Assembly (NCBI GenBank): GCA_000990355.1
Contig: LBSX01000002.1
Coordinates: 6,000 to 69,999 of the forward strand
Origin: Candidatus Magasanikbacteria bacterium GW2011_GWC2_37_14
GTDB lineage: Bacteria > Patescibacteriota > Patescibacteriia > Magasanikbacterales > UBA922
Length of the DNA: 64,000 nucleotides
Direction: 5' to 3'
Part shown: in pieces, positions 1,435-64,000 of the stretch
How the letters are laid out: every line of letters starts with the position of its first letter
Numbering within the stretch: position 1 is the first letter of the stretch
Made by a program: the position numbers and the translations under genes
The notes under the pieces: generated by a model
Told to the model about the DNA's origin: nothing
The model's database searches: none
Seen by the model: the letters and a program-made list of their open reading frames with translations, nothing else

Positions 1435-1443
1435 AATATTTTC

Positions 1444-1497
1444 CCTCCCCTATGAGGGGAGGGGTAGCCTGCCTGCCGGTAGGCAGGGGTGGGGTTT
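1444..1497. repeat. two GC-rich palindromic hairpin modules (family B)
   Basis: ccctcccctatgaggggaggg and gcctgcctgccggtaggcagg. Near-identical modules recur at 37929-37947, 38421-38450 and 47248-47274. Confidence 0.6.
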
Positions 1498-3383: not shown

Positions 3384-3977
3384 TTATTTGATAAGTTTTT
3401 TCTCTAAATAATTACCAATAAATAAATAGCCAATAAAGATTAAAATAATTATAACCGAAAAAATAATTGTGCCATAAGTTAAATAAGAATTAATTTTTTC
3501 TGAAAGTTGGCCAAGGTAATATCCAATGATTAAAAAAAATAAGGTTTTGGGTATGGTAGCCATTAAATCATATAAGAAAAAAAGCCACCAGTTTATTTTA
3601 ATTATACCAGCGGCTATAAGTATTGGTACTCCGGCCATGTGGGTGATTTTTCCAATGATTAGGGTTTTTCTAGGATGATTGTGAAAAATGTGTTTTAAAA
3701 AATTTAGACGTTTTTCTGACAATTTAGTAAAATTAGCATATTTTTCTGCGAGTTTTTTTCCACCCCAATAACCAGCTAAATAATAAAGACTGTCACTTAC
3801 CATTTCTGCGGCTATAATAATTACAAAAGCCAATAACCAATTAAACAAATCGTGAGCTAATAAAAAACCCACAAACATAGTTATTAGTGGGCCCTCAATA
3901 ATTACAAAAATAAAAACCAGCAAATAACGGTATATAGGTAAAAGTGTGGCAATTGTTGTTAGAGTTAAGAGGTCCAT
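3384..3977 (-). CDS. DedA/VTT-family membrane protein
   Basis: Multi-TM protein with a VTT-like VIIEGPLIT...LLAHDLF region. Start placed at the internal MDLL to avoid overlap with the upstream gene. Confidence 0.55.
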   Translation of the reverse strand: MDLLTLTTIATLLPIYRYLLVFIFVIIEGPLITMFVGFLLAHDLFNWLLAFVIIIAAEMVSDSLYYLAGYWGGKKLAEKYANFTKLSEKRLNFLKHIFHNHPRKTLIIGKITHMAGVPILIAAGIIKINWWLFFLYDLMATIPKTLFFLIIGYYLGQLSEKINSYLTYGTIIFSVIIILIFIGYLFIGNYLEKKLIK

Positions 3978-3991
3978 TTTAATGTTATACA

Positions 3992-6583
3992 TTATATAGC
4001 AAATAAAAACCCATAACTCAAAGAAGTATAGGCCATATCTTGCCAAACAGTAAATTCATTCATATCCGGCATGCGGGCCCAAGGAGCATATTGTCGAAGG
4101 GCAGGAATATTTTTTGGGGTGGGATAAAAATTATTATACACCAAACAACCCCAAGCATCGGTAGGTTCACAATCGCCGTCATAATCTCGTGCATGGGGAC
4201 CATAAATAGGTAATCCAGGGACTGGTTTTTCTTGTTGGTCATACATAGAATTCAAATGTAGTGGAAATTCGGGATTTCTAATTCCTAATCCAGTTATCCA
4301 AGAAAGACCCAAAGGATTTTCTCCTAATTGATAATCAGCATTTAAAGAAATTGCGTCGATATATTTTTGATCTTTGGTAAAATAATATGCCATTGCAGTG
4401 CCAACAATACTTCTCATAGAGTTTGATCCCGAGCCCCAAGCAATTGCGTAATTAAAATTAGTAGAATTTTTATATTTATTTTCCATAATTTGTTCTACTT
4501 CGTCATTGCCAATTTCAATAATTCTATTTTTTACTTGTTCTTGAAAATCTCTGTCAACGTTGGTGCCATTGGCATTGCTATAACCCCAAAAAGAATAAAT
4601 ATTTGCAAACCAAGTAGGACCACGATAGGTTGGGTACAATTGTTTAAATACATTTTGATATTTTGTTTCATTGGTTAAAGCAAATAATTCTCCGGCGGCG
4701 TACATTTTTTCTCTTTCTAGTTCATTCAGTTTGTCTTCGTTACTTCTTTCTACAGGCGCTGTCGTGCCAAGGCTAGTTTGTTTTTCTGCCCAATCCCAAG
4801 CTTTCAAGGCTTTATTTTTTAAATCAGTGGCTTTGTTTTTTCCGGCGGGATAATTTTCCAAAATTCTCGCTAAATGTGCAGCTGCTCCGGCAAATTTATA
4901 AGAAGTCCATCTGTTTGGAGCATATGTCCAGTAGGGAAGTGTGTCACCCTCACATGTAGAAGAACCTGGGTGAGCATAACTCTCAACGCCAGCTCTTACT
5001 CCGCCGTCTGATTCTTGTAAAGTTTCCCATAATTTTATTCCCCATAAAGCTTCATCCAAAACATCTGGAATTTGGTTTCCACTTTCCGGAATATTTAATT
5101 GATTGTCTGTAAATTTATTAGGAAACATTTCTTGTAAGGTTGTTAAATCTTCGACAATTAGTAAATGCATTGGTCTTAAATCAAAATCACCAGCATCAAA
5201 CCAACCACCACTAATATTTATCGGGTTATTTTTGGAAGTATTTTTAGAAAATTTTTCACCAAAATCTTCCAATATATTTGTTTCAAATACTTGGTTCAGG
5301 CACATTTTATGAATCCAGTTGGTATATTTTGATTCTAGGGCTGTGCCAGCCCGTTGGTGGTACAAACCGCGAATTGCTGTATAAAAGGCTGTAAAAGCAG
5401 AATCTAGCCCTACGCTAAAGACAAGAGATCGACCAATTCCTTCTACCTCAAGATAATAATTACCTTCGTTTAAATCACTTAAATCTAATTCATATAAAAT
5501 TTCTCCACTTAGATTGTCCGATCCTAAGTTTGTTGATTTTCCCGAACTGACCAATTGTTTGGAACTGGCATTATACACTTGATAATTTAATTGTGTCGGC
5601 AATATTAAAGCACCGCCAGAACCTAACCAATAACCAACATAAGCATAGCGTTCTTTTGCTTTTAAAGAAAAACCATGTTGATTAATTTTAATAGCTTTGG
5701 CAATTTGCAAATCTTTGCCAGGCATTAAATTCCAAGAAGAAAATTGTTCATTGGAAAAATAACCAATTGTTCCGTTATAAACATATTTTTTACCTGTTGG
5801 GTTAATAAGTTCTACTGTATAATTTTGATCATTTTTTAATTCTTTAGGTAAAGTTAAATACAAAGTATGTCTTAAAACAACGTCGGCTTGGTTTTGGCCG
5901 TTATAATCTCTGTCTTCAGCATCTAATACTGCCGAAAATCGATCAATTTTTGTAGGATGAACAATATTTTTGTAATTTATATCACTAGTAGAAATAATAT
6001 TCCAATTGTTTGCATTCATTATAAAATTTAAATCAATTTCACCATCAAAAATTACTTCCGCTATTTTATTAGTAATTAGTCCAATTGAATTATTTTTTAT
6101 TACGACTTCAGAAGTAGTAAATTCACTGTCTGGATATATTTCCGAGTTGTTTATGGTTAATATTCTGTCCCAGCGATAGCCCAAATTATTAAAAGCAGTT
6201 TCATTAGCAATGTGTTTTTTTAATAAAATTCCTTTTTCACTGTATTCTAAGCGATAAACTTTATTACTATTAGCATATTTTATAATTGTAAATTCTGGGT
6301 GATGGTCAGTGTAATTTATTTCACCGGCAGTTTCGTATTTATTTAATAATTCGACATCAATATTTTCAATCCAATTCCAAGGGTATTTTAAAGAGTTAAA
6401 AATATTTTCAGATTTTATCCAATATTTTTTATTGTTCAATAATATATACACCTTTGGGTCGTTGGGAATTTTTACCAAAGCGCCATGCAGGGTGTTATTA
6501 ATAGAAAATGCTTTTGGCACAAACAATACAAAGGCAAAAACTAAGTTTAAAACAATTAAACTAAATATTTTTCTTTTATTCAT
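3992..6583 (-). CDS. large secreted glycoside hydrolase, GH9-like
   Basis: N-terminal signal peptide. GGWFDAGDFDLRPMH resembles the GH9 GGWYDAGDH motif, and C-terminal LGENPLGLSWITGLG.RNPEFP resembles the GH9 NP...SYVVGYG...PHHR region. Confidence 0.5.
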   Translation of the reverse strand: MNKRKIFSLIVLNLVFAFVLFVPKAFSINNTLHGALVKIPNDPKVYILLNNKKYWIKSENIFNSLKYPWNWIENIDVELLNKYETAGEINYTDHHPEFTIIKYANSNKVYRLEYSEKGILLKKHIANETAFNNLGYRWDRILTINNSEIYPDSEFTTSEVVIKNNSIGLITNKIAEVIFDGEIDLNFIMNANNWNIISTSDINYKNIVHPTKIDRFSAVLDAEDRDYNGQNQADVVLRHTLYLTLPKELKNDQNYTVELINPTGKKYVYNGTIGYFSNEQFSSWNLMPGKDLQIAKAIKINQHGFSLKAKERYAYVGYWLGSGGALILPTQLNYQVYNASSKQLVSSGKSTNLGSDNLSGEILYELDLSDLNEGNYYLEVEGIGRSLVFSVGLDSAFTAFYTAIRGLYHQRAGTALESKYTNWIHKMCLNQVFETNILEDFGEKFSKNTSKNNPINISGGWFDAGDFDLRPMHLLIVEDLTTLQEMFPNKFTDNQLNIPESGNQIPDVLDEALWGIKLWETLQESDGGVRAGVESYAHPGSSTCEGDTLPYWTYAPNRWTSYKFAGAAAHLARILENYPAGKNKATDLKNKALKAWDWAEKQTSLGTTAPVERSNEDKLNELEREKMYAAGELFALTNETKYQNVFKQLYPTYRGPTWFANIYSFWGYSNANGTNVDRDFQEQVKNRIIEIGNDEVEQIMENKYKNSTNFNYAIAWGSGSNSMRSIVGTAMAYYFTKDQKYIDAISLNADYQLGENPLGLSWITGLGIRNPEFPLHLNSMYDQQEKPVPGLPIYGPHARDYDGDCEPTDAWGCLVYNNFYPTPKNIPALRQYAPWARMPDMNEFTVWQDMAYTSLSYGFLFAI

Positions 6584-9865: not shown

Positions 9866-9937
9866 CTCGGGAGGTGGGGATCGAACCCACGACCATCACG
9901 TTAACAGCGTGCCGCTCTACCGCTGAGCTACTCCCGA
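9866..9937 (-). tRNA. tRNA-Asn (anticodon GTT)
   Basis: Manual cloverleaf: acceptor TCGGGAG/CTCCCGA, D-arm GCTC/GAGC, anticodon loop CTGTTAA, T-arm GTGGG-TTCGATC-CCCAC, discriminator G. CCA is not encoded. Confidence 0.85.
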
Positions 9938-9944
9938 ATATAAA

Positions 9945-10097
9945 ATGTCTGTGTATTCACAGAAACTATGAACACATTAAATACCTTATACTTAAAGTGC
10001 GAAGCGGTACCACTGCCTGCCCGCCAAGCTTGCTGGTGATTGCGCCGGATGGTTGTGGTGTGAACCGAGAGGCGGGGGCTACTCCCGAATATAAATT
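9945..10097. repeat. GC-rich structured island bounded by an 18-19 bp direct repeat that duplicates the tRNA-Asn 5' end
   Basis: gctactcccgaatataaa occurs at 9927-9944 and again at 10078-10095. The roughly 130 bp between them is GC-rich with internal inverted repeats (gcccgcc / ggcgggggc). Confidence 0.4.
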
Positions 10098-21929: not shown

Positions 21930-22649
21930 ATGGAAAATATTGGAAAACTTTATATTGTTGCCACCCCAATTGGCAATTTAGGCGACATTACTTTACGCGC
22001 TTTGGAAACATTAAAAAGTGTTGATTTTGTTTTGTGTGAAGATACCAGAGTTACCCAAAATTTACTAAATCATTTTGCTATTAAAACAAAAAGTATTTCC
22101 TACCACCAACATAGCGGTGTAGAAAAAATAAGTGAAATTATTAAATTATTAGAGACCGGTAAAAATTTAGCTCTTGTAACCGATGCTGGCACTCCCGGTA
22201 TCTCTGATCCTGGGAATTATTTGATAGCTGAAATTGTCAAAAAATGTCATGCTGAATTTATTTCAGCATCTCAGGGGATCCTGAAACCAGTTCAGGATGA
22301 CAGTATTGTACCAATCCCAGGTGCTTCGGCAGTCATTACTGCTTTATCAATTTCTGGTTTTTCAACAGATAAATTTTTATTTCTGGGTTTTCCGCCACAT
22401 AAAAAGGGTCGCAAGACGTTTTTTGAAGAATTAGCAAAAGTAGAACACACAGTTTGTTTTTATGAATCAAATCATCGAATTAAAAAATGTTTAGGAGAAT
22501 TAGCCGACGTTTTGGAAGAAGATAGACAAATGTGCGTGTGCCGTGAATTAACAAAAAAATTTGAAACTATTTATCGTGGAACAATAAAAGAAATATTAAC
22601 AAAAAATATTTCCGAAAAAGGCGAATTTGTAATAGTAATTAGTAATTAA
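21930..22649 (+). CDS. rsmI: 16S rRNA (cytidine1402-2'-O)-methyltransferase RsmI
   Basis: YIVATPIGNLGDIT...CEDTR tetrapyrrole-methylase-fold signature of RsmI. Carries an in-frame 19-aa insert; see the mobile element at 22245-22302. Confidence 0.9.
   Translation: MENIGKLYIVATPIGNLGDITLRALETLKSVDFVLCEDTRVTQNLLNHFAIKTKSISYHQHSGVEKISEIIKLLETGKNLALVTDAGTPGISDPGNYLIAEIVKKCHAEFISASQGILKPVQDDSIVPIPGASAVITALSISGFSTDKFLFLGFPPHKKGRKTFFEELAKVEHTVCFYESNHRIKKCLGELADVLEEDRQMCVCRELTKKFETIYRGTIKEILTKNISEKGEFVIVISN
22245..22302 (+). mobile_element. MITE-like palindromic element (family A, GTCAT...ATGAC termini), in-frame inside rsmI
   Basis: tGTCATgctgaa-tttat-ttcagcatc...gatcctgaa-accag-ttcaggATGACa: two 8-bp-stem hairpins with inverted termini. 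Same termini as the 34082 and 63252 copies. Confidence 0.6.
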
Positions 22650-28640: not shown

Positions 28641-29771
28641 ATGATGATTGACACTCACTGTCATATACAATTCAATTCATATAAAGACGATTATGAAGAA
28701 GTAATAAAAAGATGCACTGAAAAGGGTATGATTTTGAATTGTGTGGGTTCACAAATTGATACTAGTAGACGAGCAGTAGAGTATGCGGAAAAGTATGAAA
28801 ATATTTATGCCACCATTGGGCTTCACCCCGTGCATTTGTTTTCCAGTGAAGTAGATGAAGAAGAAACAAAATTTAAAACGCGTGAAGAAAAGTTTGATTA
28901 TGAAGAATATAAAAAATTAGCAGAACACCCCAAAGTGATTGGCATAGGGGAGTGTGGCTTAGAATTATTTCATCTTCCAAAAGATGCTAACAAAGATGAA
29001 ATTTTGGCAAAACAAAAAGAAGGATTTTTGTTACAATACAAATTGGCACAAGAATTAGCCTTGCCAATGGTAATTCATGTACGTGATGCTTATGATGAAA
29101 TGGTAGAGTTTCTAACTGTCATTGCGAGGAGGTCAACAGCCGACGAAGCAATCCCCAGTCAGAATGGGATTGCCACACCTCGTTCGGGCGAGGTTCGCAA
29201 TGACATTTGTGGAGTAGTGCATTGTTACTCTGGTAATTGGGCTCAGGCCTCTAAATTCATTGATTTAGGCCTGTACCTAGGCTTTACTGGGATTCTAACC
29301 TATCCAACAAGAAAAACCAACCCAAAGCCTACAGAAGACCTTGTAGAGGTAGTTAAAAATTGTCCTATAGAGCGAATTTTAATCGAAACAGACGCTCCTT
29401 ATCTAGCACCGCAGAAATATCGTGGACAGCGTTGCGAGCCATGGATGGTAGAAGAAGTTGCTGTAAAAATAGCAGAAATAAAGGGAATAAGTGTAGAAGA
29501 AGTTCGAGAACAAACAGTAAAAAATGCTTTGAAATTGTTTAAAAAATTAGATATTTGGCATTTTCATACTTGTCCCCAAGCAAATCTAAAAATCCCCTTG
29601 ACCAAAGAGGGGTTTTTTAGTAAAATATGTGCGTTCTTCAATAAACAATATTCAAGAAGTATATGGCTCTTTTACCTACTGATTCCAAGGATCGTCAATA
29701 TATGTTACTTGGTTTGCGCATTGCTGGTGATTTTGGTGCTACAATTGCTGTTCCAATTGTTCTTTTTGTAA
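28641..29771 (+). CDS. tatD: TatD-family metal-dependent hydrolase (with a MITE insertion and an unusual C-terminal read-through)
   Basis: HxH (DTHCH), GECGLE, HCYSG and ETDAPYL TatD motifs. There is no in-frame stop until 29771, so the ORF overlaps the atp promoter and atpZ. Confidence 0.8.
   Translation: MMIDTHCHIQFNSYKDDYEEVIKRCTEKGMILNCVGSQIDTSRRAVEYAEKYENIYATIGLHPVHLFSSEVDEEETKFKTREEKFDYEEYKKLAEHPKVIGIGECGLELFHLPKDANKDEILAKQKEGFLLQYKLAQELALPMVIHVRDAYDEMVEFLTVIARRSTADEAIPSQNGIATPRSGEVRNDICGVVHCYSGNWAQASKFIDLGLYLGFTGILTYPTRKTNPKPTEDLVEVVKNCPIERILIETDAPYLAPQKYRGQRCEPWMVEEVAVKIAEIKGISVEEVREQTVKNALKLFKKLDIWHFHTCPQANLKIPLTKEGFFSKICAFFNKQYSRSIWLFYLLIPRIVNICYLVCALLVILVLQLLFQLFFL
29117..29205 (+). 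mobile_element. MITE-like element (family A-related) with 11-bp perfect terminal inverted repeats, in-frame inside tatD
   Basis: tGTCATTGCGA...TCGCAATGACa plus an internal gcaatccc/gggattgc hairpin. Adds about 29 aa between the conserved TatD motifs. Confidence 0.55.
29598..29626 (+). promoter_or_regulatory. sigma70-like promoter for the atp operon (overlapping a hairpin)
   Basis: TTGACC (29598-29603), 17-nt spacer, TAAAAT (29621-29626). The spacer forms a cccct-tgaccaaag-agggg-T6 stem-loop. Confidence 0.5.
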
Positions 29772-32592: not shown

Positions 32593-34080
32593 ATGTCAAC
32601 AAATACTATAGTAAACGAACTAAAAAAACACATTGCCGCTTTTGAAAAAACTGTCCAAGTAGAAGAAATTGGCACAGTAATTGAAGTCGGTGATGGCATT
32701 GCCCGCATGTCTGGCCTAACCAAGTGTCAATATCAAGAAATGTTGGAATTTACTGGTGGGGTATTTGGTGTGGCCTTAAATTTGGAAGAAGAAACTGTAG
32801 GTGCGGTTATTTTGGGTGATTACAAACAAATTAAAGAAGGTGATAGTGTAAAACGCACTGGCCGTATTTTGTCGGTACCAGTTGGTAAAAATGTGATAGG
32901 CAGAGTAGTAAATGCTTTGGGACAACCAATCGATGGAAAGGGCGATATTAAGTCAGACAAATTTTATCCAGTAGAAAAAATTGCTCCCGGCGTAATGACT
33001 CGCGAAGGTGTACACGAACCAGTACAAACTGGTATTAAAGCAATTGATGCCATGATCCCAATTGGGCGTGGACAACGCGAACTTATTATTGGTGATCGTC
33101 AAACTGGTAAAACTGCAATTGCGATTGATGCAATTATTAATCAAAAAGGCCAAGACATGAAATGTATTTATGTGGCGATTGGCCAAAAAGAATCCAAAGT
33201 TGCTAGAATCGTAGCCAAATTACAAGAAGCTGGAGCTATGGAATATACCACTGTCGTGGTAGCTGGTGCTTCGGATCCTGCTTCAATGTCTCTTTTTGCT
33301 CCTTATGCTGGAGTAGCCATGGCTGAATATTTCGCTGATCAAGGTGAAGATGTTTTGATTATTTATGATGATTTAACTAAACAAGCTTGGGCTTATCGTG
33401 AAATTTCCTTACTCCTTCGTCGTCCACCAGGACGTGAAGCTTATCCCGGTGATGTATTTTATTTACATTCTCGTTTACTTGAACGCGCTTGTAAATTAAA
33501 TGAAAAATACGGTGGCGGTTCAATTACTGCATTACCAATTATCGAAACTCAAGCAGGGGATGTAACTGCTTATATTCCTACCAATGTAATTTCAATTACT
33601 GATGGACAAATTTTCTTGGAAACCGATTTATTCTATCGTGGTATTCGTCCAGCTTTAAATGTAGGTATTTCTGTATCTCGTGTAGGTGGTTCTGCACAAA
33701 TCAAGCCAATGAAGAAAGTTGCTGGTAAATTAAAATTAGCCATGGCACAATTTCGTGAATTAGAAGCATTCTCTGCCTTATCATCCGACCTAGATGTCGA
33801 CACCAAGCGCCAGATTGACTTGGGTCAACGTATGACAGAGCTTTTAAAACAGCCACAATATTCACCAATGGCAGTAGAAGACCAAGTGGCGGTAATTTAT
33901 GCAGTATCTAACGAATTCTTTAATAAATTTTCTGTTAAAGAAATCAAAGACACAGAAAAGAAATTTTTGGAATTTTTGCATAAAAGCAAAAAAGCTTTGT
34001 TGGACAAAATTGCCAAAGGTGATTGGGAAGAAGACACAGAAAAAGAATTAAAAGAAGCTTGTTTGGAGTTCGCCAAGTAA
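32593..34080 (+). CDS. atpA: F0F1 ATP synthase subunit alpha
   Basis: Walker A GDRQTGKT and the alpha-type C-terminal domain. Confidence 0.95.
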
Positions 34081-34081
34081 T

Positions 34082-34176
34082 TGTCATGCTGAATTTATTT
34101 CAGCATCTCTTCGATAGATTACTTTTTGCTAAAATAATTAAATTAAGAAAGATCCTGAAACGAGTTCAGGATGACA
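34082..34176 (+). mobile_element. MITE-like element (family A), intergenic atpA-atpG
   Basis: 95 bp: tGTCATgctgaa-tttat-ttcagcatc, a variable core, then gatcctgaa-acgag-ttcaggATGACa. Its right end AGGATGA lies 6 nt before the atpG ATG. Confidence 0.6.
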
Positions 34177-37194: not shown

Positions 37195-37399
37195 TCCACA
37201 GTTTAAGTGGTCTTGACAGTTTTCATACTAAATTAGTATACTATACTTAGTTTAAGTCACTTTTTAATTATAATTATATGTGTGGTGGATGTTCTTGCTA
37301 AATTAGCCAAAAATATCCCGACTAAGTCGGGATATTTTTTTATTGCCTTTTTTATACTTGGATGCTAGAATAGTGTACATATACAAGCTAAAAGAGAGC

Positions 37400-40384
37400 A
37401 TGAAAGATCTGAATTTAGAACAAAAACAAGCAGTAGAATACACCTCTGGTCCGCTTTTGATTGTCGCCGGAGCTGGTACTGGTAAAACTACAGTAATCAC
37501 CCAAAAGATTACTTTTTTGGTTAAGCAAAATTTGGCCAAACCCGAAGAAATTTTGGCTTTAACTTTTACAGAAAAGGCAGCCGGGGAGATGCAGGAGCGC
37601 GTGGATCAACTATTGGATTTGGGTTATTCAGACATGCAGATTTCAACTTTTCATGCTTTTTGTCAAAAACTTTTAGAATTTCATGGGCTAGACATTGGCT
37701 TGTCAAATCAATTTAAATTATTAACTCCCACTGATGCTTGGCTCTTGGTACGTAAAAATTTAGATAAATTTAATTTGGATTATTATCGACCCCTGGGTAA
37801 TCCTACGCGCCATATCCATGAATTAATTAAACATTTTTCTAAGTGTAAGGATGAATTAATTACGCCAGCAGAATATTTAAAATATGCGGAAGAAGTGAGT
37901 TTGGATGATGATGCCGACCCCACCCCATCCTCCCCTACAAGGGGAGGGGAACGTAAGCGTCTCACTGAAATAGCTAATGCTTATCATACTTATAATCAAC
38001 TTTTGCTGGATAATAATTGTCTGGACTTTGGTGATCTAATTTTTTATGGCCTTAAATTGTTAAAAGAACGGCCAAATATTTTAAAATTATTGCAAAATAA
38101 ATATAAATATATTTTGGTTGACGAGTTTCAAGATGTTAATTATGCACAGTATGAATTGGTAAAATTGTTTACGACTAATGGAAATCAGTTAACAGTTGTG
38201 GGAGACGATGACCAGTCAATTTACGCCTTCCGCGGAGCATCGGTTTCCAATATCTTACGTTTTAAAGATGATTTTCCTAATGCCAAAGAAATTGTTTTAA
38301 CAGAAAATTATCGTTCAGGCCAAGAAATATTAGATTTAGCCTATAAATCAATACAAAATAATAATCCCGATCGTCTAGAGATTAAATTAAATATCAATAA
38401 ACAATTAAAGTCAGTAGTTAGTAGCCTGCCTGCCGGCGAGGCAGGTCTAAAGTCTGAAGTCGAATACAAGCATTTTAATACTTCAACTGAAGAAATTAAT
38501 TTTGTAATTAATAAAATTTGTGAGATTTGTAAAGATGAATCTGTAGTTTTGTCAGATTTTGCAATTTTAATTCGCGCCAATAGTCAGGCCGAACCGTTTA
38601 TTAATGCTTTTGAAAAAGTTGGTCTGCCTTATGAGTATCTGGCTTCGTCTGGATTATATCGCCAGCCATTAATTTTAGATTGTATTAACTTTTTAAAAGT
38701 ATTGGACAACTATCACGAATCCAGTGCTATTTTTCGTTTATTACATTTACCTTTTTTAAAATTTAATCCAGATGATTTACAAAAAATAACCTATTTTTCT
38801 AAGAAAAAAAGCATTTCTTATTATGAAACTCTAAAACGTGGATTGGAAATTAATTTATCAAAAACAGGTATTGAAATAGTCAATAAATTGTTAAATATAA
38901 TAAACAGTGGCACACAAATGGCCAAGGAAAAAAAACCTATAATAATTTTATTAGATTTTTTAGAACAAAGTGGTTATTTTAAATATCTTGCCTTGGAAGA
39001 TGAACAAGGTAATAGAGAAATAATTAAACAAATTAAAGAGCTACGAAGTTTTTTTGAAGAAGTTAAACACTACGAAGAATCAGTGCCTCAAGCACGCGTG
39101 TCAGATTTTTTGGAACATTATAATTATATTTTAGAGTCTGGTGATGAAGGGCAAATGTTTAAAAATCTAGAAGAAACAGAAGCGATAAAAATTTTAACGA
39201 TTCATTCTGCCAAGGGCTTAGAATTTAAATATGTTTTTGTTGTTAACTTGGTGGAAGAACGTTTTCCTAGTCGTAAACGTGGAGAAGCTATTGAATTGCC
39301 TGTATCATTAATTAAAGAAAATCTATCAGAAGTGGATTACCATGTTAATGAAGAAAGACGTTTATTTTATGTGGCCTGTACCAGAGCCAAAGAAAAATTA
39401 TTTTTAACTAGCGCGGATGATTATGGTGGGGTGAGAAAGAAGAAAGTTAGTAGGTTTATTGATGAATTAAATTTAAGTATGGAAGCAAGGCAACAATATA
39501 ACAATGTAACTATTGACACATTGCCACATTGTCACACTGTTGACAAAAAAGATATTAATCAGTCTAAAAGTACTACAATTTTATCTGACACCTTTTCCTA
39601 CTCCCAAATCAATTCATATCTTCGCTGTCCTTATCAGTATAAATTAGCCCATGTATTAAAAATTCCTACCACAGGCAATGCTAGTTTTAGTTTTGGTTCA
39701 ACTATACATAATACTTTACAAAAATTTTATAACCAGGTTATTGAATTAAATAGTATTAAACAAGATTCGTTGTTTGTTCAACATACTACAACTAAACAAG
39801 TTGGAGAAATAAAAGTTCCAACATTGGATAATTTACTAAAATTTTATAAAGATTCTTGGCAAGATGACTGGTATCAAAATAAACAACAACGAGAGGAATT
39901 TTACAAAAAAGGACATAAAATATTGGAAATATTTTATTCTTCAGAGCAAAAAAATGGCTGGACTGTGCCAGTTTTTCTAGAGAGCGGTTTTAAAATTAAA
40001 ATAGGAGATTATTTTATAAATGGACGCATAGATCATATTGATAAATTATCGGCTGGTGCTTTAAAGATTATTGATTATAAAACCGGTAAAGCTAAAGAAA
40101 AAGTAGTTGGCGATGATAAAAATCAACTGCTAATTTATCAAATTGCCGCGGAAATTTTACCTGAATACAAAAATATTGGCCCAGTTAGTGAATTAACTTT
40201 TTATTATTTAGAAGAAAATCTTACAACGTCTTTTGTTGGCGACGATAAAGACAAAACAAAACTACAAGAAAAAATTATCAAAACAATTGGGGAAATAAAC
40301 GATTCTAATTTTGTTGCCACACCCAGTGAACACATTTGTCAGCATTGTGATTTTAGAGACATTTGTCAGTTTAGACAATTATAA
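37400..40384 (+). CDS. UvrD/PcrA-like SF1 helicase fused to a C-terminal PD-(D/E)XK (RecB/Cas4-like) nuclease
   Basis: Motif I AGAGTGKT and motif II DEFQD. C-terminal region with IDYKTGK and a Cys cluster CQHCDF..C. Contains two short GC-palindrome inserts. Confidence 0.85.
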   Translation: MKDLNLEQKQAVEYTSGPLLIVAGAGTGKTTVITQKITFLVKQNLAKPEEILALTFTEKAAGEMQERVDQLLDLGYSDMQISTFHAFCQKLLEFHGLDIGLSNQFKLLTPTDAWLLVRKNLDKFNLDYYRPLGNPTRHIHELIKHFSKCKDELITPAEYLKYAEEVSLDDDADPTPSSPTRGGERKRLTEIANAYHTYNQLLLDNNCLDFGDLIFYGLKLLKERPNILKLLQNKYKYILVDEFQDVNYAQYELVKLFTTNGNQLTVVGDDDQSIYAFRGASVSNILRFKDDFPNAKEIVLTENYRSGQEILDLAYKSIQNNNPDRLEIKLNINKQLKSVVSSLPAGEAGLKSEVEYKHFNTSTEEINFVINKICEICKDESVVLSDFAILIRANSQAEPFINAFEKVGLPYEYLASSGLYRQPLILDCINFLKVLDNYHESSAIFRLLHLPFLKFNPDDLQKITYFSKKKSISYYETLKRGLEINLSKTGIEIVNKLLNIINSGTQMAKEKKPIIILLDFLEQSGYFKYLALEDEQGNREIIKQIKELRSFFEEVKHYEESVPQARVSDFLEHYNYILESGDEGQMFKNLEETEAIKILTIHSAKGLEFKYVFVVNLVEERFPSRKRGEAIELPVSLIKENLSEVDYHVNEERRLFYVACTRAKEKLFLTSADDYGGVRKKKVSRFIDELNLSMEARQQYNNVTIDTLPHCHTVDKKDINQSKSTTILSDTFSYSQINSYLRCPYQYKLAHVLKIPTTGNASFSFGSTIHNTLQKFYNQVIELNSIKQDSLFVQHTTTKQVGEIKVPTLDNLLKFYKDSWQDDWYQNKQQREEFYKKGHKILEIFYSSEQKNGWTVPVFLESGFKIKIGDYFINGRIDHIDKLSAGALKIIDYKTGKAKEKVVGDDKNQLLIYQIAAEILPEYKNIGPVSELTFYYLEENLTTSFVGDDKDKTKLQEKIIKTIGEINDSNFVATPSEHICQHCDFRDICQFRQL
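37913..37950 (+). repeat. GC-rich palindrome (family B), in-frame in the helicase gene
   Basis: gaccccacccc...cctcccctacaaggggagg is near-identical to the module at 1444-1464. Encodes PTPSSPTRGGE. Confidence 0.6.
38421..38450 (+). repeat. GC-rich palindrome (family B), in-frame in the helicase gene
   Basis: gtagcctgcctgccggcgaggcagg is near-identical to 1466-1487. Encodes SLPAGEAGL. Confidence 0.6.
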
Positions 40385-52184: not shown

Positions 52185-52955
52185 ATGACTAAAAAAACTT
52201 TGATAATTCTACCTGGATGGGGTGGAAACAAAGAAACGTGGAAAAATTTTGCAGAACTTGCGAGCAAAGATTTTGACGTACATATTATTGAATTGCCGTG
52301 TTTTGGCGATGAACCCTGCCCAAAAACAGTTTGGGATATTGAAGATTATGTTGAGTTTGTTAAAAATAAACTTCTTGAGCGTCATTCCCGCGAAGGCGGG
52401 AATCTTAAATTGGTGAAAGATCCCCGTTTTCACGGGGATGACGCAGTGCTATTAGGTCACTCATTTGGTGGACAAGTAGCCACGGTCTTTGCTTCCAAAT
52501 ACCCAGAGATGATTGAAAAACTTATTTTAACAGCACCGGCTGTTTTCCGCCCTAAAAAAACTTTTCGACGAGTAGTTTTCAATATTGGAGCAAAATTTGG
52601 TAAATTAATTTTTAAAATTCCTTGGATAGAAAATGGTTCCCTCTGGGCCGAAAAAATTTATCACCAAGCAATTGGTGCCAAAGATTATCATGATAGTTCG
52701 GGCATTAAACGAGAAATTTTTAAAAATATTATTCGTCAAGACAGGGGAGTGGAAGCTAGTAAAATTACTATACCAACTCTAATTGTTTGGGGTACAATGG
52801 ATGGTTATCTACCAGTTGCTGATGCTAATCAATTGAATAAATTAATAAAAAACTCTAAACTTGAAATAGTTAATGGTGGAAGACATGGATTACACCTACA
52901 AATACCAGAAAAACTTTTATATTTAATAAAATCTTTTCTTGAAAAAAATATATGA
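52185..52955 (+). CDS. alpha/beta hydrolase
   Basis: GHSFGG nucleophile elbow. Contains an in-frame palindromic insert just upstream of it. Confidence 0.7.
   Translation: MTKKTLIILPGWGGNKETWKNFAELASKDFDVHIIELPCFGDEPCPKTVWDIEDYVEFVKNKLLERHSREGGNLKLVKDPRFHGDDAVLLGHSFGGQVATVFASKYPEMIEKLILTAPAVFRPKKTFRRVVFNIGAKFGKLIFKIPWIENGSLWAEKIYHQAIGAKDYHDSSGIKREIFKNIIRQDRGVEASKITIPTLIVWGTMDGYLPVADANQLNKLIKNSKLEIVNGGRHGLHLQIPEKLLYLIKSFLEKNI
52380..52443 (+). mobile_element. MITE-like element (family A-like, GTCAT...ATGAC termini), in-frame in the hydrolase gene
   Basis: cGTCATtcccgc-gaag-gcgggaatc...gatccccg-ttttca-cggggATGACg: two subterminal hairpins. Encodes RHSREGGNLKLVKDPRFHGDD. Confidence 0.55.
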
Positions 52956-60839: not shown

Positions 60840-61238
60840 TTAATAAACATCATCATGATTTAATTGTTTAACATCTCTTAAAAATCTATTGAATCTTTTT
60901 AAAACAAAACTACGAACATTTACCGGTACATCTTCATATTTTAATATTTGTAACTTAATATTCTTTGGCACTTTATCTTCTTGTTTCAAATATTCTCTAA
61001 GTAAGTCATCGAAATTTTCTATAACAAACTCTGTATCAGCCTGTCTGCCTTTTTCAATATCAGTTAATATGTTATCTGGAGTATGTGTAGCCAACCTAAT
61101 CGTTCCTTCGTGCAAAATTGGTGCCACTAGTGGTCTATGACCAACATCACATTGTTCTAAATGAAGTATATCATGAAGAAATCCGTCATTGGGAAAAAAT
61201 TGACGACCCCCACCAATATCTTGGCCTTTTTCAGGCAT
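60840..61238 (-). CDS. hypothetical protein
   Basis: 132 aa with His/Asp-rich motifs (FLHDILH...GHRP...ILHEG) but no family I can assign. Confidence 0.35.
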   Translation of the reverse strand: MPEKGQDIGGGRQFFPNDGFLHDILHLEQCDVGHRPLVAPILHEGTIRLATHTPDNILTDIEKGRQADTEFVIENFDDLLREYLKQEDKVPKNIKLQILKYEDVPVNVRSFVLKRFNRFLRDVKQLNHDDVY

Positions 61239-61242
61239 AAAA

Positions 61243-62070
61243 TTAAATCTTACTTAATAAAATTCCACAAGCTACAGCCACATTAAGTGATTCGGCTTGC
61301 CCTGCCTTCGACCCGAGCTCAGGCCGAGGGTAGCCTGCCGAAGGGCAACCTAGAATAGTATACTTATTATCTAGCATTTTTTCAACTTCTGGTCGTATTC
61401 CGTGCGATTCACTACCAAAAACATAAATATTCATATTTTTCTTATTAACTTTGTCCAACTTATCACCATTCATTACCATGCCATTAAGCACATAACCATT
61501 TTTTTGAAGCTTTGTAAGGTCTTGAACAACATTAGTACTCTCTAAAATATTTAGATGAAAAATAGAACCCATAGTACTCCGCACAGCTTTAGGATTGTAT
61601 AAATCCACGCAATCTTCGGATAATAATATGCTTTTAACACCAAACCAATCTGCAGTGCGAATAATTGTTCCCAAATTTCCTGGGTCTTTAACCCCGTCTA
61701 AACAAATAATTGTCCCGTCAAAATCATTTAAAATTACTTTTGGTTGTTTTATAACAGCCAAAATCCCAGGAAAAGTCTCAGTGGTTTTAAGTTTCTTGGC
61801 TTCTTTTTCGTTACAATATTCAATCAAAATATCATTTTTGGTAGCCAGGTTAATTAAATCTAAAAAATCTGGCTCACTATCCTTTGTTTTTTCAATTACT
61901 AACAAAACAACATTCGCTTGAGCAAGCATTGCTTCTTTTACACCTTTAACACCTTCAACAATAAATTCACCCTGTGCTTGGCGAAATTTCTTTTGCTCTA
62001 TCTTATTTAAATGTTTTAGACTTTTTTGTGAAAGCATAAATAATAAATAAAAACTACTGTCGCCTTCCAA
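61243..62070 (-). CDS. SpoU/TrmH-family RNA 2'-O-methyltransferase (RlmB-like)
   Basis: Motifs ICLDGVKDPGNLGTIIRTA and ESLNVAVACGILL. Has a C-terminal in-frame GC-rich insert. Confidence 0.8.
   Translation of the reverse strand: MEGDSSFYLLFMLSQKSLKHLNKIEQKKFRQAQGEFIVEGVKGVKEAMLAQANVVLLVIEKTKDSEPDFLDLINLATKNDILIEYCNEKEAKKLKTTETFPGILAVIKQPKVILNDFDGTIICLDGVKDPGNLGTIIRTADWFGVKSILLSEDCVDLYNPKAVRSTMGSIFHLNILESTNVVQDLTKLQKNGYVLNGMVMNGDKLDKVNKKNMNIYVFGSESHGIRPEVEKMLDNKYTILGCPSAGYPRPELGSKAGQAESLNVAVACGILLSKI
61293..61350. repeat. GC-rich palindromic insert inside the spoU-like gene (related to families B and C)
   Basis: ttgccctgccttcg...gagctcaggccgagggtagcctgccgaagggcaa. Shares gtagcctgcc with family B and ccttcg...gctcagg with family C. 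Encodes about 12 extra aa (GYPRPELGSKAGQA) before the ESLNV motif. Confidence 0.55.
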
Positions 62071-62888
62071 ATCCTTTTAATTCTTTGTGGTTGTTTGATT
62101 AAGCGATACAACCATTCTAACCCAATTTGACGTAAAAATAAAGGGGCGCGTTTAACAGTTCCGGATATATAATCAAAAGCTCCACCCACACCCATGGCAA
62201 TTCTGACACTTGGTAAGTCTTTTAAATTTTCATTAATCCACTTTTCTTGTTTACCATGACCAAAGGCGACAAAAAGGATGTCTGGGGCCGACATAATAAT
62301 CTGTTGAACAATTTCGTCATTTTCTTCTTTATCATAACTAATCTTGTAATCTTTTAATCTTTTAATCTTCATCCCCTTGTTTAACCCAACGATCTGTAAA
62401 TTTTTAAATTTTTTTCTTAATTCGTCACCTGTCTTTCTTATTACCTCTTCGCTTCCCGACCCTAATAAATATACACTTTTATTCGTTTTCTCTGCGAAAG
62501 CACAAATATCATGCATTAAGTCTATACCAGGGTAACGCGTTATCCTCCTCTTTCTAAGAGGAGGTGGCCGAAGGCCGGTAGAGTTTGCCGGAGTTTCATC
62601 AGCTTCGGCAACTCCCCCCGCCTGCCTTGACGGCATGTCGGGCAGGCCTACCCCCTCTTGGAAAGAGTGGGGCAACCACATTGCTAGCTTTAAACCCGTT
62701 CCATCACAAACATTCAAATCTCCACTATTTAAAACAGTTTTAAAATAGTTGTCTTTTTGCGCGTCAACCAGTATTTCTGGATTAGGGGTAAAAATTTTAT
62801 GCGATTTGTTTGAATTCAAAAATTCAGTAACTTTTTCAAGTACTTCTGTTATTGATAAATTGTCTATTCTTACATTAAGAACGTTCAC
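62016..62888 (-). CDS. WecB/TagA/CpsF-family glycosyltransferase (GT26)
   Basis: N-terminal pattern including DG.G. Carries an insert of about 40 aa in the middle. Confidence 0.65.
   Translation of the reverse strand: MNVLNVRIDNLSITEVLEKVTEFLNSNKSHKIFTPNPEILVDAQKDNYFKTVLNSGDLNVCDGTGLKLAMWLPHSFQEGVGLPDMPSRQAGGVAEADETPANSTGLRPPPLRKRRITRYPGIDLMHDICAFAEKTNKSVYLLGSGSEEVIRKTGDELRKKFKNLQIVGLNKGMKIKRLKDYKISYDKEENDEIVQQIIMSAPDILFVAFGHGKQEKWINENLKDLPSVRIAMGVGGAFDYISGTVKRAPLFLRQIGLEWLYRLIKQPQRIKRIWKATVVFIYYLCFHKKV
62543..62690. repeat. cluster of four GC-rich hairpin modules, in-frame inside the tagA-like gene
   Basis: cctcctc-tttctaa-gaggagg; ggccgaaggcc; gcctgcc-ttgacggcatgtcg-ggcaggc; cccctctt-ggaa-agagtgggg. 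Encodes GVGLPDMPSRQAGGVAEADETPANSTGLRPPPLRKRRI. Confidence 0.55.
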
Positions 62889-62898
62889 AATGGATAAA

Positions 62899-63207
62899 TT
62901 ATTTATTACTTTTTTCTGATTTCAAAATATAAATAGACACAACCACAATCACAATCGTAATAATCACCGCATAAATAAATTTGGCCAAAAGTCCCCCACC
63001 AGAAGCAAGGGGAAAATATCTTTCAATTAATCCTTTTATAGCTTCATTCCAGGCCAAACCAGCCACTAACCCAAATCCAGCCAAAACATAAGTACCAATT
63101 TTTTGTTTAACTTCTGTCCCAACTTTTTTTGTTTCTTTTTTGAAATTGTCTAGCATACGTTCAATGATTAATATATTAATATTAGCAAATTTGACAAAAA
63201 AAATCAA
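62899..63207 (-). CDS. small hypothetical membrane protein
   Basis: Two TM helices. The real start is probably internal (MLDNFKK). Confidence 0.4.
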   Translation of the reverse strand: MIFFVKFANINILIIERMLDNFKKETKKVGTEVKQKIGTYVLAGFGLVAGLAWNEAIKGLIERYFPLASGGGLLAKFIYAVIITIVIVVVSIYILKSEKSNK

Positions 63208-63251
63208 GCTGGTATAATATTAGCACTCAAAGGTAGTGAGTGATAACTCAC

Positions 63252-63346
63252 TGTCATGCTGAACTTGTTTCAGCATCTATCCTTGTAAACACATTTCTAA
63301 AAAATTATAACTTTATGAAAGATCCTGAAATAAATTCAGGATGACA
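63252..63346 (+). mobile_element. MITE-like element (family A), immediately upstream of clpB
   Basis: 95 bp, with the same termini and hairpin modules as 34082-34176. Its right end AGGATGACA lies 6 nt before the clpB ATG. Confidence 0.6.
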
Positions 63347-63352
63347 ACCATT

Positions 63353-64000
63353 ATGAACCCACAAAATTTTACCCACAAATCACAAGAAGCATTGCAACGT
63401 GCTTCACAAATTGCTAGCGATAATGGTCACCCTCAAGTAGAACCACCTCATCTTTTTGCTGCATTACTGGAAGATGAAACTGGTGTGGTAGTTTCAATTT
63501 TTAAAAAATTAAATATAAATTTGGAAGAATTAAGAACCGAAATTAACAAGATGGTTAATTCTATTCCCAAACAATTTTCTGGTCCTCAGCCGGGGAATTT
63601 AGGGCAAATATTACTTGGACCAGGAATGGTGTATATTCTGCAAAATGCGCAAAACGAAGTACAAAAAATGGGTGATGAATACATTAGTGTAGAACATTTG
63701 CTCTTGGCTTTTTTAACCAATAAAAACCCAATTAGTGATGCTTTGTCACGCCAAGGAGTACAATATAATGAGATTTTAAAAACTTTAGCCAAAATCCGTG
63801 GCACGCAAAAAGTTGACTCCCCTGCCCCAGAACAAAAATATCAAGCCTTGGAAAAATATGGCAAAAATTTAACTGATTTGGCCCGCAAAGAAAAACTAGA
63901 TCCAGTAATTGGCCGAGATGATGAAGTGCGTCGGGTAATGCAGGTATTAACTCGTCGTACCAAAAATAATCCTGTCTTGATTGGTGAACCTGGGGTTGGT
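63353..64000 (+). CDS. clpB: chaperone ClpB, N-terminal part (3'-partial, runs off the window)
   Basis: Clp N-domain repeats, then the first AAA+ Walker A GEPGVG at the window edge. Not in the ORF track because it has no stop. Confidence 0.85.

Follow-up and report, generated by a model that had tools for sequence, protein, structure and literature searches.

We find that a glycosyltransferase gene of Candidatus Magasanikbacteria bacterium GW2011_GWC2_37_14 carries, in the middle of its coding sequence, a cluster of GC-rich hairpins that is probably a mosaic of repetitive extragenic palindrome (REP)–type repeats, similar to the bacterial interspersed mosaic elements (BIMEs) and REP doublets (REPINs) of other bacteria. 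The gene encodes a cell-wall sugar transferase, a WecB/TagA/CpsF-family enzyme of glycosyltransferase family 26 (GT26), and lies on a 64,000-nucleotide (nt) stretch of contig LBSX01000002.1 (assembly GCA_000990355.1, positions 6,000 to 69,999), hereafter the window, to which our coordinates refer unless another locus is named. In this interpretation, which we hold to be the likely one, the palindromes became established, with the reading frame kept, in a surface loop that tolerates changes in length within a functional enzyme, and they are translated as a disordered loop of ~44 residues. An original prediction, made from the letters of the sequence, had described an in-frame hairpin insert in a GT26 enzyme at 62543 to 62690. 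Pfam searches, folding, and orthologue alignment bear this out, except that folding gives five palindromes where four had been claimed. The kind of element is already known, as intragenic REP/BIME or Rickettsia palindromic element (RPE)–like sequence, and no new kind of system is involved. In the literature that we searched, we found no earlier description of palindromic repeats inside working genes for Magasanikbacteria or the candidate phyla radiation (CPR); searches for work linking REP-type or palindromic repeats with CPR/Patescibacteria, which were not exhaustive in coverage, likewise returned nothing relevant. The gene and its insert are as follows.

62016 to 62888, minus strand: intact gene of the GT26 WecB/TagA/CpsF-family glycosyltransferase, 290 amino acids (aa).
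62544 to 62678, minus strand: the insert, in which five GC-rich hairpins form a mosaic of 135 nt, adding ~44 residues (protein residues ~71 to 115).

Structure of the insert

The insert has a GC content of 0.61, against 0.33 for the window (32.7%), and is read through in-frame with no stop codons. The minus strand of 62530 to 62700 folds as RNA into five consecutive GC-rich hairpins at −78.1 kcal/mol. Dinucleotide shuffles average −59.3 kcal/mol (z = −4.55), and none of 200 folded as well. Because the folding beats all 200 shuffles, we take the palindromic cluster to be real and not a product of chance. Folded as DNA, the same segment gives z = −4.52, and its outer hairpins can also pair with each other; an alternative fold draws the entire insert into a single long hairpin. 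On the plus strand, the parts run in the order hp5, hp4, GTAG plus hp3, a C-run spacer, hp2 plus CTAC, and hp1.

62651 to 62672, minus strand: hp1, a pyrimidine/purine hairpin, CCCCACTCTT-tcc-AAGAGGGGG.
62620 to 62651, minus strand: hp2, a GTAG-tagged REP-like unit, GTAG + GCCTGCC-(14 nt)-GGCAGGC.
62578 to 62614, plus strand: hp3, also preceded by GTAG but on the strand opposite to hp2, GTAG + AGTTTGCCGGAG...CTTCGGCAACT.
62566 to 62576, no strand assigned: hp4, a mini-hairpin, GGCC-gaa-GGCC, with another hairpin at the equivalent position of the related locus L002.
62544 to 62564, no strand assigned: hp5, a pyrimidine/purine hairpin, CCTCCTCTT-tct-AAGAGGAGG.

The stem of hp2 is a perfect 7 base pairs (bp; GCCTGCC/GGCAGGC) with GTAG directly 5′ of it (62651 to 62648, minus strand). 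That of hp3 is ~10 bp with one bulge and likewise has GTAG directly 5′ (62578 to 62581, plus strand). The two form a head-to-head heterodimer with the GTAG tags outside and a C6/G6 spacer of 5 to 6 nt, and this pair is flanked by hp1, hp4, and hp5. The similar pyrimidine/purine hairpins at the flanks are related to each other, hp5 being a quasi-inverted partner of hp1. The 44-aa peptide is rich in Pro, Arg, and Gly (GVGLPDMPSRQAGG is a stretch within the predicted translation) and contains no Pfam domain.

The insert interrupts a GT26 enzyme

The 290-aa open reading frame (ORF) matches the Pfam family Glyco_tran_WecG (PF03808, E = 3.8e-49), with the match picking up again after the insert, where residue 113 corresponds to profile position 20. 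A Foldseek search with its AlphaFold (AF2) model recovers the TagA/TarA structures 7mpk, 5wb4, and 5wfg (target TM ~0.9, E ~1e-15). Sequence alignment equates T34, N36, D62, and R118 with T37, N39, D65, and R83 of TagA, in which these are conserved pocket residues (PMC6493773). The Pfam domain, the TagA fold, and the four pocket residues together place the protein in GT26, and the alignment to TagA puts the insert between the catalytic Asp62 and Arg118. In the model, the predicted local distance difference test score (pLDDT) falls below 50 only for residues 75 to 112, which are inserted, and the structure is confident elsewhere.

We compared the 117 closest GT26 orthologues in which the CDG and RxPG motifs could be located. 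The loop between these motifs is 10 or 12 aa long in 98 of them and 54 aa in the window protein, which gives a net insert of ~44 aa (132 to 135 nt). The nearest orthologue (P0002, at locus L001) has the short loop, is 76% identical outside the insert, and lies in the same gene order; its DNA aligns to the window with a clean in-frame gap of ~132 to 135 nt. In a neighbor-joining tree of GT26 (branch support was not computed), expanded loops are scattered, every one with unexpanded sister sequences.

A second relative shares the insert. This locus (L002, protein P0004) comes from Logan SRR22387951, a sample unrelated to that of the window; outside the insert, it shares 66% identity with the window, and synonymous sites in its flanks have reached saturation (dS ~1.6). 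It holds a homologous composite at the equivalent GT26 site, with hp1, hp3, and hp5 in conserved order and other small hairpins standing in place of hp2 and hp4, a pattern of modular turnover. The stems of hp3 are kept, and its loop differs. Between the window and L002, identity is 81% in the insert against 66 to 74% in the flanks, and within the insert, 85% at paired positions against 69% at unpaired ones. The insert has pS 0.39 and pN 0.27 and the flanking gene ~0.7 and ~0.22, so that pN/pS is 0.69 in the insert and ~0.31 in the flanks. Judged from these alignments, conservation appears to sit in the stem nucleotides rather than in the peptide; alternatively, the element may be younger than the split between the window and L002 lineages. 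Either one points to an element that exists at the level of DNA.

The insert belongs to a dispersed repeat family

Parts of the insert recur outside it, both in the window and in metagenome contigs that we fetched (L numbers). The copies in the window, apart from one in the neighboring SpoU gene that is described below, are these.

1443 to 1487, plus strand: intergenic module copy between convergent genes, consisting of a CCCTCCCCT hairpin, GTAG, a CCTGCCT hairpin, and GGTGGGG.
38421 to 38445, plus strand: GTAG plus a CCTGCCT hairpin, in-frame in a UvrD/PD-(D/E)XK helicase-nuclease gene (37343 to 40384).
37929 to 37947: CCTCCCCT hairpin, in-frame in the same UvrD/PD-(D/E)XK gene.

Three copies of the sequence GTAGCCTGCC lie in the window (one at 1464, one at 38421 in the helicase-nuclease gene, and one at 61330 in the SpoU insert), when 0.03 are expected, and GTAGGCCTGCC occurs once, in hp2. 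In all, GTAG+(G)CCTGCC has four copies in 64 kb. The GTAG-tagged copies at 1468 to 1487 and 38425 to 38445 have 7-bp stems, and hp1-type hairpins lie at 1443 to 1463 and 37929 to 37947. Both hp1 and hp2 therefore match a module found elsewhere in the window: The half of the insert that comprises hp1, GTAG, hp2, and the G-run is built like the intergenic copy at 1443 to 1487. The core module is a pyrimidine-rich hairpin followed by GTAG, a GCCTGCC...GGCAGGC hairpin, and a G-run, with a second GTAG-preceded hairpin facing it on the other strand.

At least 119 metagenome contigs, with GC contents of 0.29 to 0.71 among the matches listed, contain GTAGCCTGCCTGCCGG(N1-2)AGGCAGG as an exact 24- to 25-mer. 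It often forms part of the hairpin-GTAG-hairpin-G-run module or lies within the loop of some other hairpin repeat. Contigs with CCTGCCTGCCGG, the form of the GTAG hairpin seen at 1464 and 38421 and a close relative of the hp2 unit, often have it between a pyrimidine-rich hairpin on the 5′ side and a G-run on the 3′ side. Those with the full hairpin-GTAG-hairpin-G-run order include L087, L111, L113, L117, L145, L169, L170, L174, L184, L186, and L200. Across the window and the metagenome loci, GTAG-CCTGCC copies occur in both orientations relative to transcription, and modules of the insert turn up between genes as well as within unrelated ones, where they use several reading frames and either strand. 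A GTAG-CCTGCC copy often stands after tandem heptamers (GTAGTTA/GTAGTCG, several copies) and before TCAACAGCCCC, for example, in L103, L125, L134, L138, L150, L161, L164, and L198, and the helicase copy in the window (38408 to 38464) has a short version of this context (AGTCAGTAGTTAGTAG...). Heptamers, hairpin, and TCAACAGCCCC together look like a larger composite repeat. One viral contig holds two GTAG-CCTGCC copies, which is uninformative on carriage by phages. A separate set of 14 matches to the hp3 pattern in viral contigs has no flanking sequence in common with hp3 and looks like chance.

Some copies lie in tRNA-like surroundings. In several contigs, the 20-nt CCTGCC hairpin immediately follows the GTAG in a partial tRNA 5′ end made up of acceptor and D-arm, as in L126 (2685 to 2708), L154 (7456 to 7479), L095 (643 to 666), L084 (784 to 807), and L101 (73 to 96). 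The first three of these hairpins are just upstream of intact tRNA genes. L126 reads ‘agttcgggatGTAG[hairpin]ctcagcccgg’, followed 8 nt on by an intact tRNA-Pro whose first 24 nt are the same. When the hairpin was deleted in silico from the tRNA-like contexts, no tRNA was restored. In these copies, GTAG may be a target site, or the copies may belong to a tRNA-linked composite repeat. Another recurrent 3′ flank of the hairpin, GA(T/C)TCGAA(G/C)C, resembles a tRNA T-arm (L122 with two copies, L157, L180, L089, and L124).

Proposed spread of the repeats

We propose that the repeats would spread as DNA. The likeliest route would be single-stranded hairpin intermediates acted on in trans by an HUH/Y1 enzyme, either IS200-like or similar to the REP-associated tyrosine transposases (RAYTs), or else recombination between copies. 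Selection would then purge insertions, save in-frame ones in loops that tolerate extra residues, and the translated peptide would be a neutral passenger. Such a filter for tolerant loops would explain why different repeats occupy the same GT26 loop across lineages (see below).

Searches for a mobilizing enzyme with phmmer (E. coli RayT) and jackhmmer (the Y1 protein of L119) covered window ORFs of at least 70 aa and ~200 loci, and found no RAYT/Y1 homologue except in L119 itself. There, at 5000 to 6450 of a contig with 58% GC, is a RAYT-like Y1_Tnp gene (PF01797, E = 9e-10) with tandem ~120-nt units before it and copies of a different repeat, GCGCCGGCACGGAGGCCGGCGGTAC, after it, an arrangement resembling a REPtron. 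A single GTAG-CCTGCC hairpin, at 3625 to 3648, is found 2 kb from this gene.

Several observations weigh against our interpretation. In the ~1.1 Mb of DNA fetched, a single Y1_Tnp gene was found, flanked by a different repeat, and because no RAYT/Y1 gene occurs in the window or near other copies, we infer the mobilization step entirely. The full five-hairpin composite is seen in GT26 only, so it may not be mobile as a unit, and neither hp3 nor hp4 has other copies in the fetched DNA, except for hp3 in L002. The GTAG tags read GAAG and GGAG in L002; since GGAG stands at hp3, the assignment of that tag is tentative. Last, the insert is present in the distant L002 and absent from the nearest relative L001, which requires precise losses or a second acquisition or transfer.

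A bolder extension, which we regard as speculative and unlikely, is that the hairpins belong to a cross-phylum set of REP-like repeats (identical 24-mers in contigs of 29 to 71% GC) that persist and spread in CPR genomes with no resident RAYT. Such genomes leave next to no room between genes, and the repeats would repeatedly colonize the same protein loops, their stems being actively maintained, whether as a functional RNA or DNA signal in coding sequence or as a recurrent source of new disordered loops. On this reading, tRNA genes might offer a natural target in the GTAG of their D-arm, given the several metagenome copies that directly follow GTAG in partial tRNA 5′ ends. In either form, the case bears on how REP-type elements move without an evident transposase.

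Comparison with known elements

The closest comparison is with the GTAG REPs of Di Nocera et al. 2013 (PMC3733652). These have stems of 6 to 13 bp and, at one end, a GTAG that is unpaired and in some cases degenerate; they frequently form head-to-head or tail-to-tail dimers and clusters, and some families are common to distant organisms. In some species, copies are intragenic; these encode 20 to 30 aa, and clusters up to 43 to 82 aa, and many lie in repair genes, including UvrD/Rep helicases. The same paper relates the intragenic repeats of rickettsiae to RPEs. REPINs provided a further comparison system (PMC3116915).

The window element resembles GTAG REPs, BIMEs, and REPINs in that hp2 and hp3 are GC-rich imperfect palindromes of 20 to 40 bp with stems of 6 to 13 bp. 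An unpaired GTAG is present at hp2, at hp3, and at the copies at 1464, 38421, and 61330. As in GTAG REPs and BIMEs, the units are paired in inverted fashion with a short spacer (hp3/hp2) and grouped with other stem-loops (hp1, hp4, and hp5). Copies are interspersed within the window, and both systems occur in UvrD-type helicase genes. This likeness to GTAG REPs, of which PMC3733652 gives 24 families, is one of structural criteria, the stem in the window being CCTGCC...GGCAGG. There are also differences. The host belongs to the CPR (Magasanikbacteria), a group that has no mention in that paper's abstract or its sections on GTAG families and dimers. The insert and most window copies lie inside ORFs rather than being extragenic, and the window and the fetched loci yielded no cognate RAYT.

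RPEs, of which Ogata et al. in 2000 reportedly gave the original account, offer a second parallel. Both are palindromic repeats carried in-frame at a structurally tolerant site of a gene that probably stays functional, and both have hosts with small AT-rich genomes. RPE-1 is a single longer element, whereas the window insert is a mosaic of hairpins of 11 to 37 nt, and the window hairpin families span contigs of very different GC content. The likeness to RPEs (RPE-1 to RPE-8) is one of behavior.

Miniature transposable elements with inverted repeats (MITEs) such as Correia/NEMIS, ERIC, and Nezha are also small, nonautonomous, hairpin-forming, and sometimes intragenic. We rejected this class for the insert. 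It has none of the 15- to 30-bp terminal inverted repeats of insertion sequences (ISs), its ends being self-contained hairpins, and its units are far below the 70 to 300 bp typical of MITEs. Alignment of the filled and empty sites gives no direct repeat at the insert borders, and thus no target-site duplication. The mitochondrial genomes of yeast, which are very AT rich, contain GC-rich palindromic mobile clusters that occasionally lie in-frame in coding sequence; these belong to a eukaryotic organelle and have no sequence or mechanistic link with the window element, so the resemblance is an analogy only. An intein, a self-splicing intron, and a known RNA were rejected as well: The insert has 44 aa with no Pfam domain and no Rfam match, and intein blocks span at least ~130 aa. 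At the gathering score, Rfam finds only a tRNA in the whole window, and at permissive E, it returns only noise for 61000 to 63500 (E > 0.7).

Alternative explanations

The hairpins might instead be kept as RNA or DNA cis elements of the operon, acting in mRNA stabilization or processing, in translational pausing for folding, or in pausing of transcription or replication. Conservation is higher in their stem nucleotides than at synonymous positions of the host gene, the fold is very stable (−78 kcal/mol), and roles as RNA elements or gyrase sites are proposed for the REPs of other bacteria (PMC3733652). We nevertheless consider such a role unlikely, given the copies in both orientations relative to transcription, the absence of a matching Rfam family, and a nearest relative that does without the insert. 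Recent acquisition, or gene conversion between copies, could give the same stem conservation.

It is still less probable that the insert is a lineage-specific functional part of the protein, a disordered linker or regulatory loop selected, for example, for binding to membranes or partners, with the hairpins incidental. Its position between the active-site residues D62 and R118 would suit such a loop, as would a composition rich in Pro, Arg, and Gly, like that of many disordered linkers, and its retention by two lineages through long divergence with the genes intact. The closest and most other orthologues lack it, though, and the stems are conserved but the peptide only poorly, as the pN/pS values above show. 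The modules also occur between genes and in unrelated genes, in several frames and on both strands, and other lineages have quite different peptides at this same site.

Local origin, with template switching or slippage building quasi-palindromes in an indel-prone loop, is very improbable. It would account for the missing transposase and target-site duplication, for hp3 and hp4 having no further copies in the fetched data, and for the variable length of this loop across the GT26 family. It does not fit the match of hp1 and hp2 to a module elsewhere in the window, the close variant of this module with CCTGCCTGCCGG in many unrelated contigs, or the exact members of widespread families that occupy the same loop elsewhere (e.g., GTCATTCCCGCGAAGGCGGGAATC in L204). 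A segment of 61% GC would also be hard to generate locally in a genome of 33% GC. An assembly or sequencing artifact, or a pair of decaying pseudogenes, is hardly conceivable: The genome is metagenome assembled and palindromes can confuse assemblers, but identical GT26 and SpoU proteins are in the protein database under several sources that differ in the length of their longest contig (92,280 for the GT26 entry and 92,104 for the SpoU entry), L002 has the homologous insert in an unrelated sample, and the frame is kept with no stop codons and dN/dS of 0.13 to 0.17. We therefore retain a REP-type mosaic as the likely nature of the insert.

A smaller insert in the adjacent SpoU gene

The gene next to GT26 was also said to contain a GC-rich insert just before its catalytic ESLNV motif, and it does.

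61243 to 62037, minus strand: SpoU/TrmH-family RNA 2′-O-methyltransferase gene, 264 aa from the ATG at 62037.
61294 to 61350, minus strand: SpoU insert, a GC-rich imperfect palindrome that adds 14 aa (CPSAGYPRPELGSK) in the loop before ESLNV.

The protein matches PF00588 (E = 2.5e-31), with the match broken at the insert, and is a SpoU enzyme by its SpoU_methylase domain and C-terminal ESLNV motif, of which E260, S261, L262, and N263 are invariant in 20 orthologues. The loop from YTI to ESLNV has 20 aa in the window protein and 6 aa in 89 of the 96 orthologues in which the motif was found. The insert includes GTAGCCTGCC (61330 to 61339, plus strand) and would represent the same phenomenon as in GT26 on a smaller scale. 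In L002, SpoU has a homologous insert at the same site, 5 aa long, and the window version looks like a nested 27-nt addition to this shorter form. The mechanical ORF (61243 to 62070, 275 aa) begins at a TTG within the end of GT26 and is thereby 11 codons longer on its upstream side. Because of the orthologue alignment and the low pLDDT of residues 1 to 10, the true start is probably the ATG at 62037. Even from this ATG, the two genes overlap by ~20 nt, as they do in L001. Just downstream of SpoU in L002 (3058 to 3414) is a 23S_rRNA_IVP/bAvd-like gene, possibly an accessory of a diversity-generating retroelement.

The SpoU model has a mean pLDDT of 85.5, which drops below 50 for residues 247 to 260 (the insert) and for the probably spurious extension at the N terminus. 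As the original prediction had suggested checking, the inserted peptides of both proteins are thus predicted to be disordered. It had also named two findings that would tell against it, decay of the genes and a conserved domain at the insert, and neither applies. Against L001, dN/dS is 0.15 for GT26 and 0.13 for SpoU, and against L002, it is 0.17; with these values, and with ORFs and catalytic residues intact, the genes are not pseudogenes but, as far as sequence can tell, functional and under purifying selection. Nor is there a conserved domain at the GT26 insert, which is missing from most orthologues. Enzymes can evidently tolerate such repeats even between active-site residues (the equivalents of TagA D65 and R83) and beside the SpoU ESLNV motif.

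The further suggestion of local hopping finds no support, because both inserts are shared with L002, a relative saturated at synonymous sites. They appear to be old rather than products of recent local movement. That of a hotspot holds in another sense. Regional clustering is not significant (3 of ~10 hairpin sites within 2.06 kb, p = 0.26), whereas the GT26 loop itself is filled by unrelated hairpins in many lineages.

The GT26 loop as a recurrent site

At least four unrelated hairpin types account for expansions of this loop in other Magasanikbacteria lineages, with the hairpins confirmed at the DNA level in L203 to L206, L006, and L010. Examples of these loop repeats are as follows.

L203: three hairpins.
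L204: GTCATTCCCGCGAAGGCGGGAATC, an exact member of a widespread hairpin family.
L205: GTCATCCCGAGCGAAGC...GGGATC.
L206: GTCATTGCGAGG...GCAATCC.

Because unrelated hairpin repeats occupy it in separate lineages, we regard the loop as a permissive hotspot; by these comparisons, it appears to be a recurrent landing or survival site. Inserts are concentrated in a GT26 subfamily with the loop FGLWLATGRRAE (P0029, P0038, P0043, and others), in which 13 of 23 sequences have them, against 5 of the remaining 94. The Trp of FGLW, which tends to go with loops that bear inserts and was considered as part of the element, proved to mark this subfamily and is found also where there is no insert. A second GT26 site, at residues ~140 to 160 between the NKG and YD motifs, has hairpins in L043 (2903 to 2964) and L030 (2933 to 2951). 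The one in L043 is a GTCATTCCCGC/GGATCCCCG pair, the same as in the hydrolase gene of the window listed below. A single loop used repeatedly by unrelated repeats amounts to a natural map of insertion-tolerant sites. Such inserts need masking in alignment-based phylogeny. When CPR proteins are annotated or their structures predicted, low-complexity “domains” that lack an explanation may be repeats that are translated.

Other hairpin repeats in the window

This streamlined, gene-dense CPR genome is peppered with palindromic repeats. The window has at least seven in-frame hairpin inserts in 6 of its ~60 genes, GT26 and SpoU included, so that at least five genes besides GT26 carry them. The other in-frame families typically begin with GTCAT and end with ATGAC, as inverted pairs, and AT-richer hairpin families coexist with the GC-rich ones.

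22246 to 22301, plus strand: inverted pair of GTCATGCTGAA and TTCAGGATGAC, lying in-frame within the gene of a TP_methylase (RsmI-like).
29119 to 29204, plus strand: GTCATTGCGA...TCGCAATGAC composite palindrome of a different hairpin family, in-frame in a TatD-family gene.
34083 to 34106: single hairpin copy, intergenic, 3 nt past the stop of ORF 32593 to 34080.
52379 to 52444, plus strand: inverted pair of GTCATTCCCGCG and CGGGGATGAC, lying in-frame within the gene of an alpha/beta-hydrolase.
63253 to 63355, plus strand: inverted pair of GTCATSCTGAA hairpins (63253 to 63276 and 63331 to 63355), intergenic, upstream of a Clp ATPase gene.

Three copies of GTCATGCTGAA-nnnnn-TTCAGCATC and two of the related hairpin GTCATCCTGAA-nnnnn-TTCAGGATC are distributed over 22246 to 22301, 34083 to 34106, 63253 to 63276, and 63331 to 63355. 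A further 100-nt tract of ~60% GC (9990 to 10091), which has no Rfam match even at permissive E, adjoins the tRNA at 9866 to 9937 and might be a further repeat or a small RNA that lacks annotation.

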